NCBI GenBank assembly: GCA_028822985.1
Contig: JAPKCK010000008.1
Span: 112-64,111 of the forward strand
Source of the DNA: Aquiluna sp.
GTDB lineage: Bacteria; Actinomycetota; Actinomycetes; Actinomycetales; Microbacteriaceae
DNA: 64,000 bases
Direction of reading: 5' to 3'
In this document: positions 55,155 through 63,538 of the stretch, piece after piece
Numbering within the stretch: the stretch's first letter is position 1
Layout of the letters: the number at the start of each line of letters is the position of its first letter
Made by a program: the position numbers and the translations under genes
The notes under the pieces: model-generated
What the model was told of the DNA's origin: nothing
Databases searched by the model: none
What the model saw: the letters and a program-made list of their open reading frames with translations, nothing else

Positions 55155-58100
55155 TTGGCTGCTGCGAAAAACGCTAGTTCCATCAAGTCCGCAAAAAACT
55201 CTCGCGAAGCAATGCGACCAACATTCGCAAAGCACCCAGACCCGATAGAGATACCAGATCTACTCTCCCTTCAGACGGAGAGCTTTGATCAGTTGGTGGG
55301 CAACCCTGCATGGCGTGAAATCGCCGGCAAGGATGCTAGGACCGGTCTGGATGAGGTCTTTGAAGAAATCAGCCCAATCGAGGACAGCTCAAACGCTGCT
55401 CAAGATGCAAAAATGGGGCTTTCTTTCTCAGAGCCAATGCTGTTCGACCCGACCTACACTCCTGATCAGTGCAAGGAAAAGGGCAAGAGCTACACCAAGC
55501 CGCTTTACATCAAAGCTGAGTTCACCAACTATCTGACCGGTGAAATCAAGAGCCAGACCGTGTTTATGGGTGACTTCCCAGTTATGACCGGCAAGGGCAC
55601 ATTCATTATTAACGGAACCGAGCGAGTCGTTGTTTCTCAGCTAGTTCGTTCCCCGGGTGTTTATTTCTCGGTGTCGACTAACACCACTGGAAACCTTGAC
55701 GTTCGAAACAACAAGGCCCAGATCATTCCGAGCCGTGGTTCCTACCTAGAGTTTTTGACCGAGTGGGTCAAGGATGAGCGTAAGCCCGCTGCCAGGTTCG
55801 GAAAGCCGATCTTGCAGGTGCAGGTTGACCGCAAGACCAAGGTTTCAGCAACTATCTTTTTGAAGGCTCTTGGTTTTTCCAAGGAAGAAATTCGCGCTGA
55901 GTTCGCAGACATCAAGGCTGCAGCGCTTGCAAGCCCGCTGGGTATCAGCTACGACGATGACATCATCGAGCGCACCCTTGAATATGACGAGTCAAAGGTT
56001 TTCCCAAACGGGATCCTTACCAAGGAAGACGCTCTTCGCGAGGTCTACCGCAAAGTACGTGGCGAAGCTGCCGGTGCTGAAGTTGCCGAGGCTTGGTTGC
56101 GTTCAACATACTTCGAGGGCAAGCGTTACAACTTGGCTCGCGTGGGTCGTCACAAGCTAAACCGCAAGCTCAACATTAATCAGGCCGCAGACACTACGAC
56201 CTTGACCAGAGACGACATCGTTGCAACGTTGAAGTATTTGTTGTTGTTCGACCTAACTCTGGCCAATAACGTTTCTTCAAACACTCAGCGCGCTGAGTTC
56301 AATGTGAAGATGGCGGGCAAGAAGGTCAACCTAGTTGTTAGCTCGGACGACATCGACGATTTCTCTAACCGTCGTATTCGTTCGGTTGGTGAGTTGATTC
56401 AGAACCAGGTTCGAATCGGTCTGAGCCGCATGGAGCGTGTTGTTCGCGAACGTATGTCCACGCAGGACATTGAAGCGATCACCCCGCAGACACTTATTAA
56501 CCTGAGACCAGTTGTTTCGGCAATCAAGGAATTCTTTGGTGCCAGCCAGCTTTCGCAGTTTATGGATCAGAACAATCCATTGGCCGGTCTTGCTCACAAG
56601 CGTCGTTTGTCAGCACTTGGACCGGGAGGTATCGCTCGTGAGCGTGCCCAAATGGAGGTCCGCGACGTGCACCCTTCTCACTACGGACGTATGTGTCCTG
56701 TTGAGACTCCAGAAGGCCCGAACATTGGTCTTATCGGATCACTAACCGCTTTCAGCAAGATCAACGCTTTCGGCTTCATTGAGACTCCTTACCGTTTGGT
56801 GAAGGACAACAAGGTCGGCAAGAAGGTCGAGTACCTTGATGCCTCTGCCGAAGAGGGCAAGGTTATTGCCGGAGCTGATACTCCTTTGAATGCCGATGGC
56901 ACTTTGGTCGGCCCACGTGCATTTGCCCGTTTCCGTGGAGACATGGTTGAGGTTGCAGCCGAGGACGTCGATTACATCGACATTTCCCCTCGACAGTTGG
57001 CCAGCGTTTCAACTTCGTTGATTCCATTCCTTGAGCACGATGATTCGTCACGTGCTTTGATGGGTGCGAACATGCAACGTCAAGCTGTTCCTCTTCTAGA
57101 GGCAGAAAGCCCATTTGTTGGAACCGGCATGGAGCGCCTAGCGGCGATTGACTCCGGTGCGGTTCTGACCAATGAGCTAGCCGGTGTTGTAGAAGAGATC
57201 GATGCTGACCAGATAGTTGTGATGAACGATGATGGATCACGCTCGAACTACACTCTTCGCAAGTTTGACCGTTCAAACCAGGGCACCGCAATCAACCAGA
57301 AGGCGATTATCGAAATCGGCCAGCGAGTTGAAAAGGGCGATGTTTTGGCTGACGGCCCATCCACTGAGAATGGTGAGCTAGCGCTTGGAAAGAACCTGCT
57401 CGTGGCATTCATGCCGTGGGAAGGTTACAACTTCGAGGACGCTATCATCCTGAGCCAGGAGCTAGTAAAGAACGACACCCTCTCTTCAATCCACATCGAA
57501 GAGTACGAAGTCGATGCCAGAGACACCAAGCTTGGTGCCGAGGAAATTACTTCTGACCTTCCAAACATCTCAGTTGAAGCTCTTGCTCAGCTTGATGCGA
57601 GTGGAATTATCCGAATCGGAGCCGAAGTTCGTCCGGGAGACATCCTGGTTGGAAAAGTCACGCCTAAGGGTGAGACTGAGCTTTCGGCCGAGGAGCGACT
57701 ATTGCGTGCGATCTTCAACGAGAAATCGCGTGAAGTTCGCGACACATCTTTGAAGGTGCCTCACGGTGAGCAGGGAACCATCATTGGCGTCAAGGTATTT
57801 GACGCTGAAGAGGGCGACGAGCTCGGTGCTGGCGTGAACAAGCGTGTAGTTGTTTACATCGCCCAGAAGCGAAAGATCACCGAGGGTGACAAGCTTGCCG
57901 GTCGACACGGCAACAAGGGTGTTATCGCTAAAATCTTGCCCGTCGAGGATATGCCGTTCATGGAAGATGGAACTCCGGTTGACATCGTATTGAACCCACT
58001 GGGTATTCCTGGTCGAATGAACTTCGGTCAGGTTCTGGAATCACACCTTGGTTGGGTTTGCCGCCAGGGCTGGGACGTTTCCGGAGTCGCTAAGTGGGCA

Positions 58101-58778
58101 GATGAGATGTCGAAGGACCTCTTCAGCGCTCCAGCTGGAACTAAGGTTGCCACGCCGGTATTCGATGGCGCAACCAAGAACCAGGTTGCGGGTCTTCTAG
58201 ATCACACCTTGCCAAACCGAGACGGCAACCGCCTAATCGATGGCAGTGGTAAAGCCAACCTATTCGATGGCCGCTCTGGCGAGCCTTACCCAATGCCAAT
58301 TGCTGTTGGCGTGAAGTACATGTTGAAGCTGCACCACTTGGTTGATGACAAGATTCACGCTCGTTCCACCGGTCCTTACTCCATGATTACTCAGCAGCCA
58401 CTCGGTGGTAAGGCTCAGTTCGGTGGACAGCGATTCGGTGAGATGGAAGTTTGGGCACTGCAGGCTTACGGCGCAGCGCACACTCTCCAGGAGCTACTGA
58501 CTATCAAGTCAGACGACATCGCCGGCCGTGTTCGAACCTACGAGGCAATCGTCAAGGGCGAGAACATTCAGGCACCTGGTATCCCCGAGTCCTTCCGAGT
58601 ACTCGCAAAGGAAATGCAGTCACTGGGCCTAAACGTCGAGGTAATCGACAACAAGGGTCAAGTAGTTGTTTTGAAGGACGAGGCGTTTGAAAACGACCGC
58701 GCCGCTGAGGAACTAGGCATCAACCTGAGCCGCAACGAGCAGTTGTCATCTGACTCCGACTTCAACACCTACCAGTAA
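55155..58778 (+). CDS. rpoB: RNA polymerase beta subunit
   Basis: [66 protein letters not shown]. Confidence 0.99.
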
Positions 58779-58813: not shown

Positions 58814-61800
58814 ATGTCTGTGAAAGTAGAAAACTTCAGTGCTCTTCGGGTAGGTCTTGCCACCTCGGAGGAAATCCGCTCTTGGTCATCAGGTGAAGTC
58901 AAGAAGCCTGAGACCATCAACTACCGAACTCTAAAGCCGGAAAAAGACGGCCTATTCTGCGAGAAGATCTTTGGTCCAACCAAGGACTGGGAGTGCTCTT
59001 GCGGTAAGTACAAGCGAGTTCGCTTCAAGGGAATTGTCTGCGAGCGTTGTGGCGTAGAGGTAACAAAGTCCTCGGTTCGTCGTGAGCGCATGGGTCACAT
59101 CGAGCTAGCCGCTCCTGTAACTCACATCTGGTATTTCAAGGGTGTTCCATCTCGTCTGGGTTACCTACTGAACATGGCACCAAAAGACCTAGAGAAGATC
59201 ATTTACTTTGCCGCTTACCGAGTCATGGATATTGACCACGAGATGCGAACCGCAGAGTATGACCTAGTCCGCGATGAGTACGTAACCCGTATTCGCGCGC
59301 TGATCGACGCTCGTGAAGAAGAGTTTGAGGCCGCAGCCGGCGAAGAGATCGCTGCAATGCGCGAACTTGGCTTGGTAATGCAGATCTCCAACAAGTTCTG
59401 GGAGGCACCTCGTTGGATCGAGAAGCAGTTCTCCAAGAGCCTTGAGCAGCTAATCGACTCAGAGGAAAAGGATGCGGATGCATTCTGGTCCGTCCGAACC
59501 TTGGCTCAAATGTCTGACGAAGAGCAGGACGACACCGTTGTTCGCACCACCGATGAGGCCAAGAAAATCAAGAAATTGATTGCCGACATCAAGAAGAAGG
59601 TGGACAAGATTGTCCGCGAGTACGCCCGTCTAGAGCGTCCTGCAAACCTTCACAAGGAGCAGTTGGCATGGCGTATGTTCCTAACGGCGGAAGTCGGCCA
59701 GCTAATGCCAAACGACGTGGTCTTTGACTACTTCGACTACTACTTCTCCGACTACGTAATAACTTCAATTGGTGCCGAGGCAGTCTTGCAGGTATTGGCT
59801 GCATTCGATCTTGAGGGCGCAGCTGCAGAATTGCGCGCCGAGATTGCAACCACCAAGGGCTCTAAGCAGACTCAGGCCATCAAGCGCCTGAAGGTTGTAA
59901 ACAGCTTCGCTCAGTCCGGTACTCCTCCAACCTCCATGGTGCTATCGGTTCTTCCGGTACTACCTCCGGAGATTCGCCCAATGGTTCAGCTAGACGGTGG
60001 CCGCTTCGCGACCAGCGATCTAAACGACCTTTACCGCAGGGTGATCAACCGTAACAACCGTCTAAAGCGATTCGTTGATCTAGGCGCGGTTCCAAAGACC
60101 ATCTTGAACAACGAGAAGCGCATGCTTCAGGAAGCCGTTGACGCACTGTTTGACAACGGTCGCCGCGGTCGCGCCGTTACCGGAACCGGTAACCGTGCAC
60201 TGAAGTCACTTTCTGACCTTCTAAAGGGTAAGCAGGGTCGTTTCCGTCAGAACCTTCTGGGTAAGCGAGTTGACTACTCCGGTCGTTCCGTAATTGTGGT
60301 TGGACCGCAGTTGAAGCTTCACCAGTGTGGACTTCCAAAGCTGATGGCCCTTGAGCTTTTCAAGCCATATGTAATGAAGCGTCTTGTTGACATGGGCCTT
60401 GCCCAGAACATCAAGAGCGCTAAGCGCATGGTTGAAAGAAGCCGACCACAGGTCTGGGGAGTTCTCGAGGAAGTTATTCGTGAGCGTCCAGTGCTTCTAA
60501 ACCGTGCACCTACCTTGCACCGTTTGGGAATTCAGGCATTCGAGCCACAACTGGTTGAGGGTAAGGCTATTCAGCTTCACCCGCTTGTTTGTGCGGCCTT
60601 CAACGCTGACTTCGATGGTGACCAGATGGCTGTTCACCTTCCTCTGTCAGTTGAGGCGCAGGCTGAGGCCCGCATCTTGATGCTTGCTTCGAACAACATT
60701 TTGAAGCCATCGGACGGACGTCCGGTTGCTACACCTACCCAGGACATGATCATTGGGCTCTTCCACCTAACCGCTGAAGTTCCTGGCGGCACCGGTGAGG
60801 GCCTAGCCTTCACCTCAATGGGAGAGGCCCAGATGGCCTTCGACATTGGCGGGCTTGATCTAGGCGCCAAGGTTCGAATTCGTATCGAGGGTGAATTGCG
60901 CGAGACCACATTTGGTCGTGCGCTATTCAACGAGACGCTTCCTCTTTCATACCCATTCGTGGAGATGCAAGTCGGCAAAAAAGAACTAGGCCAGATCGTA
61001 TCTGATTTGGTCGAGCTTTTCAGTCGCACCGAGGTTGCACTTTCCCTTGACGCTTTGAAGGATGCTGGATTCCACTGGGCAACCCGTGCCGGTGTTTCGA
61101 TGGCTATCTCTGATGCCAACTTCGACCCGAAGGGCACCTTCGATAAGGAGCGTGCTTCCAGGATCGTCAAGGCCGAGAAAGCTCACACCAAGATTCAGGA
61201 AGCGTTCGACAATGGTCTGAAGTCAGACCTTGAGCGTCGTGATGAGCTTGGAGCGCTTTGGTTCAAGGAGACCGCCGAAATCGAGCAGCTACTGCGCGAA
61301 TCGATCCCGACTGACAACGCAATCTACAAGATGGTCACATCTGGTGCCAGGGGTAACTGGCTTCAGATTCGTTCCATCATGGGTATGCGTGGACCGGTTG
61401 CAACTTCATCAGGTGATTTTGCTCCGATGCCAGTGAAGGGTAACTACCTATTGGGTCTAACCCCTCACGAGTACTTCATTAACGCAACTGGAGCTCGTAA
61501 GGGTAACGCTGACACCGCCATGAAGACGGCTGCAGCGGGTTACCTAACTCGTCGTCTGGTCGACGTTGCACAGGATGTCATCATTCAGATCGAGGACTGT
61601 GGAACCACTAAGGGTCTGGACAAGGACCTTCTGGATCAAGAGCAGGTTGAGCTTTCAATCGTCGGTCGTACGAATCTTGTTGACATCAAGCAGGGAAAGA
61701 CAGTTCTTCTTCCTGCCGGTGTGAACATTGATCACTCTGCGGCAAGACGCATCAAGGAAGCCGGAGTAGAAACAATCACTGTTCGCTCCGTTCTAACTTG

Positions 61801-62992
61801 TGAGGCTGAAAGCGGTATCTGCGCGGCTTGCTACGGTGTTTCATTGGCCACAAACCAAAAGGTAACTATTGGTGAGGCAATTGGAATCATCGCCGCTCAG
61901 TCAATCGGTGAGCCTGGTACTCAGCTAACAATGCGTACCTTCCACACCGGTGGAGCGGCATCGAGCGCCAAGAAGCAGACCATTCTGAAGTCAATTGGTG
62001 GCCAGAAGGTTCGTGTTGAGCGTCTGATTTCCTATGACATCACGCAGGGTCTGAACGGTGTTACTGACCTTCTAGAAGCGCGTGTTGGATGGCGTCAAGC
62101 GGGCAAGGTTGCTGTTATGGCATTCTGGGCCGGTCAGGTGGACATCGTTGAAAAGGTTTCCCTAACCGGAACCAAGAGCTTCGAGGTCTACGTTCGCCCA
62201 CAAGGTGAAAAGGCCGAGAAGGAAGCCGAAGCGCTTGCGACTCAGTACAGCTTCAGCCGTACTGCATCGAAGACCTTCAAGAAGCTAAGTCCTTACCTTC
62301 CGATCACAATTGTTGCCTCAGTTGGCGACCTAGTGGTTCAAAAGGGTGACATGGTTGACGCTGGAGATTACCTGGTTGATGGAACTCCAATTCCACACGA
62401 GGTTTTGATGATTCGTGGTTCGCGTGAAGCGGCTGCGGAAATCATCCGAGGTGTTCAGGCCATTTACGGCTCACAGGGCGTTCCGCTGCACGACAAGCAC
62501 CTTGAGGTAATTGTCCGTCAGATGCTGAACAAGGTAACCGTAATTGACTCTGGAGACACCAACATGCTTCCGGGTGAGATTATTGATCGCCAGAGCTTTG
62601 CAGGCAAGAACCGTCAAGCAGTTGCGCAGGGCAATCGTCCCGCCAGTGCTCGTCAAGAGGTAATGGGTATGACCCGTGCTTCACTTGCTGCTCAGTCTTG
62701 GCTATCGGCGGCATCCTTCCAGGAGACCACTCGAGTCCTAACCCAAGCGGCGCTAGATCGCCGTGAGGACAGGCTTGTGGGTCTAAAGGAAAACGTGATC
62801 ATCGGAAAGCTAATTCCAGCTGGAACTGGACTATTGACTTACCGCAACTTCGAAGTAGATGGAACAGAAGAGGCGAAAGCCGAGCGCTATCCAAACCGAA
62901 TCTGGTCGGACCAGGGTTACGACCCAACCGATCTAGACTCGCAGGAGCTCAGCCTGAGTGTTTCTGATCCATTTGCAATCGATGAGAAGTAA
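58814..62992 (+). CDS. rpoC: RNA polymerase beta' subunit
   Basis: Zn-finger Cys residues, NADFDGD catalytic motif, [32 protein letters not shown]. Confidence 0.99.
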
Positions 62993-63043: not shown

Positions 63044-63166
63044 TAGGGCTGGTCATGCAACTGCATGTATCAGGCCAGCTCTCGTGAATGTTCGAGATCA
63101 CGGCCAAAACCTTTGGTTATAAAGCGCCGTTCTGGCGCGCCAAAGATTAATGAACGAGGAGAACAA

Positions 63167-63538
63167 GTGCCAACAATTCAGCAGTTGGTTCGCAAGGGAC
63201 GCAGCCCAAAGGTCACCAAGACCAAGGCTCCAGCCCTAAAGGCTAACCCGCAGCAGCGCGGTGTATGCACCCGTGTGTACACCACCACCCCAAAGAAGCC
63301 GAACTCTGCGCTTCGTAAGGTGGCACGTGTCAAGCTGTCAAACGGTACCGAGGTAACCGCGTACATTCCGGGCGAAGGTCACAACCTTCAGGAGCACTCG
63401 ATGGTGCTTATCCGTGGTGGTCGCGTGAAGGACCTGCCAGGTGTTCGTTACAAGATCATTCGTGGTGCCCTGGACACTCAGGCAGTAAAAGACCGTAAGC
63501 AGGCTCGTAGCCTCTACGGCGCAAAGAAGGGTAAGTAA
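63167..63538 (+). CDS. rpsL: 30S ribosomal protein S12
   Basis: GTG start after the GAGGAG RBS; [32 protein letters not shown]. Confidence 0.99.

Follow-up and report, generated by a model that had tools for sequence, protein, structure and literature searches.

A short, apparently undescribed trigger-loop insertion linked to a remodelled hinge in the RNA polymerase of Luna-1 Actinobacteria

All cellular RNA polymerases rely on a mobile catalytic element, the trigger loop. Its first helix carries Met, Arg and His residues whose roles have been described, and its second helix breaks on loop opening at hinge 2, a Gly/Pro hinge (PMC4227799). Bacterial enzymes and yeast Pol II alike have a conserved Pro-Arg pair at this hinge. 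In the yeast enzyme, where the motif reads GVPRLKE, the G-x-P hinge H2 and an ion pair between R1100 and E1103 have been defined, and the G1097A/P1099A and R1100A enzymes are fast (PMC3533926). Insertions in the trigger loop are cast in the literature as large, old modules, every known one consisting of two or more SBHM repeats (Bao & Landick, bioRxiv 10.1101/2021.01.27.428476). SI3, also called β'In6, comprises 188 aa and two SBHM repeats in Escherichia coli and other Gram-negative bacteria, and the cyanobacterial Si3 has five. SI3 inhibits trigger-loop folding (PMC4227799), and E. coli lacking SI3 is viable only with a suppressor substitution in the trigger loop (PMC11077087). A domain survey assigned the Actinobacteria to type 1 β', without lineage-specific β' insertions, and suggested that later bacterial evolution brought no further insertions (PMC11515920).

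We analyzed a stretch of 64,000 nucleotides (the window), whose last ~9 kb hold the canonical gene order rpoB-rpoC-rpsL. The rpoC gene (58814-62992, on the plus strand, as are all features given below) is the only one in the window; it follows rpoB (55155-58778), precedes rpsL and encodes a β' subunit of 1392 aa. The protein scores 1530.3 bits against the NCBIfam equivalog model TIGR02386, for which the curated cut-off is 963.5, identifying it as RpoC, and the catalytic motif NADFDGD is present at 60602-60637. Its nearest homologues are Aquiluna-named proteins (90-94% identity), with Rhodoluna at 78%. Because the closest β' proteins carry these two names, and because the homologues and a genome scan described below share the insertion reported here, we conclude from the sequence comparisons that the organism is a member of the Luna-1 subcluster (Aquiluna plus Rhodoluna) of the Microbacteriaceae. 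The subcluster consists of small planktonic actinobacteria with genomes below 2 Mb (PMC12422013).

Two other features of the locus were recorded. The open reading frame of rpsL (63065-63538, 157 aa) aligns to the S12 model from residue 36 onward only, and the real start is probably ~105 nt downstream of 63065. Residues ~130-330 of β' (59200-59800) correspond to the region of the actinobacterial N-terminal β' insertion, ~200 residues long here, which has the lowest within-clade conservation in the protein (49-70% identity per 40-residue block). This N-terminal insertion is longer in the window protein than in Mycobacterium tuberculosis.

The trigger loop combines canonical and unusual parts. 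Hinge 1 and trigger helix 1 (61907-61954) are intact, including the motif MRTFH (61931-61945) with its substrate-contacting Met, Arg and His, and are invariant across 149 sequences. Between TFHTGG and DITQG, by contrast with the 4-residue tip of other Actinomycetota, lies a tip of 27 residues (61955-62035), ~23 residues longer. It contains a first predicted hairpin arm, KKQTILKSI (61970-61996), a Gly-Gly turn formed by G1062 and G1063 (61997-62002), and a second predicted arm (62003-62035). Trigger helix 2a, DITQGL (62036-62053), is the same as the consensus. It is followed by hinge 2 (62054-62059), which has Asn-Gly (Thr-Gly in some Rhodoluna-type lineages) where almost every other RNA polymerase has Pro-Arg, and by trigger helix 2b (62060-62095), where clade comparison, alignment and translation show E1085D and F1087L and then ~4 extra residues, VGWR. 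Shortly past helix 2b the usual Pro is replaced by Gln (P1095Q, codon 62096-62098).

We compared this loop with 120 other Actinomycetota β' sequences, a set that does not extend to the nearest non-Luna Microbacteriaceae outgroups. The tip has four residues in 118 of them and five in the other two, Pro-Arg follows in every one, and none carries the insertion. Pairwise alignment of the window protein with a typical actinomycete β' opens a gap of 23 residues precisely at the tip of the loop, and alignment with SI3-bearing and SI3-free β' sequences shows that the insertion point is the SI3 site of Gram-negative bacteria. A preliminary description made from the window's letters had read the same amino acids from 61931-62083 (β' codons 1040-1090), counted the 27 residues, and placed them at the SI3 site as something actinobacteria normally lack; these comparisons bear it out on each point. 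Canonical actinobacterial β' subunits (including the solved ones of M. tuberculosis, M. smegmatis and Streptomyces) are otherwise the same protein, encoded in the same operon and with the same trigger helix 1 and DITxGL; they differ in their 4-residue tip followed by GLPRV, and the Luna-1 proteins are ~57% identical to them, with more indels after trigger helix 2 and in the jaw.

A broader sample, the 150 best representatives drawn from a library of 1.84 billion proteins, gave three classes of trigger-loop tip: 4-7 residues with Pro-Arg (Thr-Arg in one), SI3-type tips of at least 147 residues with Pro-Arg (rarely Pro-Lys or Pro-Gln), and 27 residues in five representatives. With ~23 extra residues, the Luna-1 insertion is too small for an SBHM domain and is not a member of the SI3/β'In6 family. 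It enters the loop at the same point as SI3, between the tip and helix 2a, and like SI3 must move with every trigger-loop cycle; unlike SI3, it occurs in Actinomycetota and arose late, at about the level of a genus. It might still derive from an ancestral SI3-type (SBHM) insertion by a degeneration that spared only the first and last strands, given a weak local likeness to the borders of SI3 (GGAAS at the beginning and, ahead of DITxGL, K-V-R-V-E-R against (I/L)AKIPR). The likeness spans few residues and was significant in no search, however, and the tip of four or five residues in all other sampled Actinomycetota makes an SI3-bearing ancestor unparsimonious, so that we regard this origin as highly improbable. 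When we looked for a donor or a local duplication, tblastn and blastn searches against the window returned chance-level matches only.

Hinge 2 of the Luna-1 protein reads G-L-N-G-V-T-D, without the motif G-(L/V)-P-R-x-x-E, and both the G-x-P hinge and the Arg-Glu pair motif are thus absent. Pro and Arg are each present at this hinge in 100% of the 120 other Actinomycetota sequences, and among the 150 representatives only the five with 27-residue tips carry Asn-Gly or Thr-Gly in their place. The loss of an 'invariant LPR' had been proposed in the preliminary description; the loss of Pro-Arg and its association with the insertion stand, whereas the Leu is kept (GLNG) and the Pro is not strictly invariant elsewhere, being rarely Thr, His or Leu among the 150 representatives. 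Loops bearing SI3 keep Pro-Arg (rarely Pro-Lys or Pro-Gln), in contrast to Luna-1 loops. The changed positions are the same G-x-P-R-x-x-E positions that were altered in the yeast Pol II hinge-2 mutants (Rpb1 G1097A/P1099A, R1100A and E1103G; PMC3533926). Those are engineered single or double mutants that are fast or error-prone, whereas the Luna-1 changes are natural, fixed, and accompanied by the insertion and by other changes in the active site.

A single representative genome from each of 185,579 species was scanned with the pattern I[S/T]YDITQGL[N/T/K]GV. The 94 matching genomes are labelled Aquiluna, Rhodoluna, or unclassified Microbacteriaceae, Micrococcales or Actinomycetota metagenome-assembled genomes (MAGs) from water. 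Two MAGs labelled 'Auritidibacter sp. Marseille-P8566' have a Luna-type rpoC (loci L029 and L042), and the label is probably a taxonomic mislabel. The tip is 27 residues long in all 93 Luna-1 genomes compared, and hinge 2 is Asn-Gly or Thr-Gly in every one of these insertion-bearing genomes; the insertion is also found in 120 of 120 of the closest homologue clusters among the matches listed. The more divergent insertion-bearing representatives map to Rhodoluna-type MAG loci. Judged by this distribution, the insertion has become fixed throughout the Luna-1 subcluster (Aquiluna plus Rhodoluna), and its origin probably lies approximately at the ancestor of that clade.

Pattern scans of the metagenome collection, made in an index without a positive control, returned no match for the insertion with an intact Pro-Arg hinge, and none for a short loop with an altered hinge (TGGxxxxDITQGL[N/T/K]GV). 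Intermediates with the insertion alone or the hinge change alone were found neither among the representative proteins nor in the metagenomes scanned. Since neither half-state was found, the insertion and the loss of Pro-Arg are strictly linked in all sequences examined. Some Rhodoluna-type lineages, including a low-GC group with the Thr-Gly hinge, have a β' of ~1590 residues (P0274 and P0271; loci L016, L042 and L059). Their ~200 extra residues lie directly after trigger helix 2b, between FWxG and KSxE(V/I), and the region adjoining the trigger loop is therefore a hot spot for indels in Luna-1.

Nine residues of the insertion never vary across the 93 genomes despite free codon variation (I1057, I1061, G1063, R1067, E1069, R1070, I1072, S1073 and Y1074): two lie in the first predicted arm, one in the turn, where G1062 is also kept in 91 of 93 genomes, and six in the second arm. 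Across 91 genomes, the 22 hairpin codons have a dN/dS of 0.105; helix 1 (~0) and helix 2 (0.04) lie below this value and the first five tip residues (0.29) above it. Conservation among 120 homologues reaches 98.6% in the last 22 tip residues and averages 81.5% over the protein, which makes the insertion comparable to core segments of β'. The insertion DNA occurs with identical sequence in many marine, estuarine and salt-lake metagenomes, and a metatranscriptome contig spans it without gaps, showing that the region is present in mRNA.

Together, the conservation, the dN/dS values and the presence in metagenomes and mRNA rule out an artefact and make a neutral insertion very unlikely. Nothing speaks for an assembly or sequencing error, a chance event, a pseudogene or a second rpoC copy without function; the reading frame is uninterrupted within the canonical operon, homologues and 93 independent genomes share the insertion, the metagenome and metatranscriptome copies have no indels, and we consider this explanation refuted. 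A neutral insertion tolerated at a permissive surface loop of a fast-evolving, genome-streamlined lineage has more to recommend it, as the site accepts very large inserts in other phyla and the Luna-1 β' is a long branch overall. Its constant length, dN/dS of 0.105 and nine invariant residues over 93 species amount to core-like conservation, however, and we disfavour neutrality as very improbable. We instead consider that the insertion has probably been under purifying selection since the Luna-1 ancestor.

We modelled residues 701-1392 with AlphaFold using two alignments, a shallow one (mean pLDDT 54) and a deeper one (68). Both runs assigned DSSP strands to residues ~1053-1061 and ~1064-1072, separated by a turn at G1062-G1063 and followed by helix 2, with a pLDDT below 50 in the trigger loop. 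The insertion falls into three sequence subtypes, and the paired changes S1060R with K1065E and K1059R with V1068E fit an antiparallel register, a covariation drawn from only about three independent subtypes. A hydrophobic-moment test of the two arms found neither beta nor helical periodicity, the values not differing from those of shuffled sequences. The β-hairpin of the preliminary description is thus favoured weakly by two low-scoring predictions and a few covarying pairs and gains nothing from the hydrophobic moment. The basic character described there is plain in most variants, whose net charge is +4 to +6, the positive charge being kept through compensating changes; in some sublineages it is +1 to +3. 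Overall, the insertion is probably a basic β-hairpin of uncertain fold and direction.

A basic hairpin at this place could mainly be a new contact element that binds nucleic acid or substrate, such as incoming NTPs, downstream DNA or RNA backtracked into the secondary channel. The net charge maintained in most variants by compensating substitutions and the invariance of R1067, E1069 and R1070 are consistent with such a role, as is the emergence of the insertion at the SI3 site, beside the secondary channel (10.1101/2021.01.27.428476); the mobility of hinge 2 may also affect downstream DNA contacts (PMC3533926). On the other hand, the charge falls to +1 to +3 in some sublineages, and the linked hinge, F-loop and bridge-helix changes point to folding dynamics. 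We therefore see a primary contact role as plausible and rather unlikely.

The changes that accompany the insertion were sought by comparing Luna-1 sequences with the 120 other Actinomycetota and 82 diverse representatives. The Luna-1 β' differs at 15 near-universal positions, which are concentrated in the mobile elements of the active site. The F-loop and bridge helix (61340-61576; element names from PMC4227799 and PMC3533926) carry clade-specific substitutions: Q854S, L861P and I874V in the F-loop, and L898N (GARKGL to GARKGN) and L903M in the hinge region of the bridge helix. Hinge 2 and helix 2b contribute P1081N, R1082G, E1085D and F1087L, with P1095Q after the helix. In RpoB, fork loop 2 (56637-56672) reads RERAQM where solved actinobacterial polymerases have RERAG(L/F), RERAGLEVRDVH; every one of the 18 Luna loci extending that far has the Gln-Met in place of Gly-Leu/Phe. 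Beside fork loop 2, CPIETPEG has become CPVETPEG, which is likewise kept in 18 of 18 Luna loci reaching it.

Because the whole Luna-1 β' is a long branch, with ~57% identity to other Actinomycetota, which share ~72% with one another, some of these apparently co-adapted substitutions may reflect general drift and not compensation. The C-terminal part of the Luna-1 β' scores no nearer to Actinomycetota than to other phyla.

A clade-specific extension in the jaw region (62225-62329) is absent from the typical actinomycete β' in the alignment, and its core, YSFSRT.S.TFKKL.P, is basic and invariant within Luna-1. We speculate that this extension is a possible docking partner of the hairpin. More generally, the hairpin might dock or gate a protein partner, whether by controlling the access of GreA or another secondary-channel factor, by binding a clade-specific factor, or by meeting the conserved jaw extension. 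One proposed role of SI3 is to clear the secondary channel and reset it once per cycle (10.1101/2021.01.27.428476), and Rhodoluna MAGs contain and transcribe greA (supplement of PMC12422013). The hairpin is therefore no stand-in for a lost GreA; a motif search of the 64-kb window found no greA. Against a docking role, ~23 residues offer a small surface, and we judge it improbable.

The explanation that we favour, and consider probable, is that a ~23-residue, non-SBHM insertion at the SI3 site was fixed in the Luna-1 ancestor, co-evolved with the remodelled hinge and retunes trigger-loop folding, with its function inferred. Because helix 1 and helix 2a keep their catalytic residues, folding of the trigger loop onto the NTP is probably retained. 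A basic hairpin with antiparallel strands around the Gly-Gly turn would project toward the side of the secondary channel and jaw, travel with the loop in each folding cycle, and shift the equilibrium between folded and unfolded states as SI3 would. Such a shift could alter the elongation rate, pausing and traffic in the secondary channel; possible effects on Gre access, pausing and fidelity had been suggested in the preliminary description. The change of Pro-Arg to Asn-Gly or Thr-Gly, the E-to-D and F-to-L substitutions, and those in the F-loop, bridge helix and fork loop 2 would then rebalance trigger-loop dynamics around the insertion. In SI3-bearing enzymes, too, the trigger-loop sequence and the insert are co-adapted, as the need for a suppressor on SI3 deletion indicates (PMC11077087). 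The correlation between hinge and insertion is observed directly, and compensation, like any effect on rate, pausing or fidelity, would be its interpretation. As a more tentative proposal, the insertion may act as a basic finger, gating the secondary channel or retaining substrate or backtracked RNA, and together with the Pro-Arg loss it may give a different control of trigger-loop closure.

Another trigger-loop insertion that is not obviously SBHM was seen in the comparison, in β' proteins of which two clusters bear Armatimonadota names (P0148, P0150, P0153, P0155, P0163, P0168, P0171, P0186, P0197, P0216, P0263 and P0264). It is ~60-80 residues long, rich in K, E, R and L, and apparently helical (for example GGVAAQYLTGVAEVKKKKQEALRELxxD...ERERxxxIQxMLKVLEE), and DITxGLPRV is changed to xxxGLLR(I/V) in these proteins. 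It resembles the Luna-1 case in its altered hinge, GLLR for GLPR, and differs from it in length, sequence and phylum, and in keeping the Arg.

We found no prior description of the Luna-1 insertion in the literature on trigger loops, lineage-specific insertions or conserved signature indels, although the sequences are already public and annotated plainly as rpoC. The novelty claimed in the preliminary description is in keeping with this and with the restriction to one small clade, and the insertion appears to be an undescribed type of trigger-loop insertion. Set against the large, old SBHM modules of the literature, it is small, young and strongly selected, and its hinge is rebuilt.

The insertion provides a clean molecular marker for the Luna-1 clade. 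Luna-1 organisms are cultivable and have genomes of 1.2-1.4 Mb, making them a tractable system for the effects of an insertion on transcription rate, pausing and fidelity. Their polymerase offers a window on compensation by the bridge helix, F-loop and fork loop and on the origin of insertions. If the proposed control of trigger-loop closure is true, the genus-level origin in cultivable bacteria would make Luna-1 a natural experiment on how SI3-like trigger-loop insertions begin and how the active site co-adapts.
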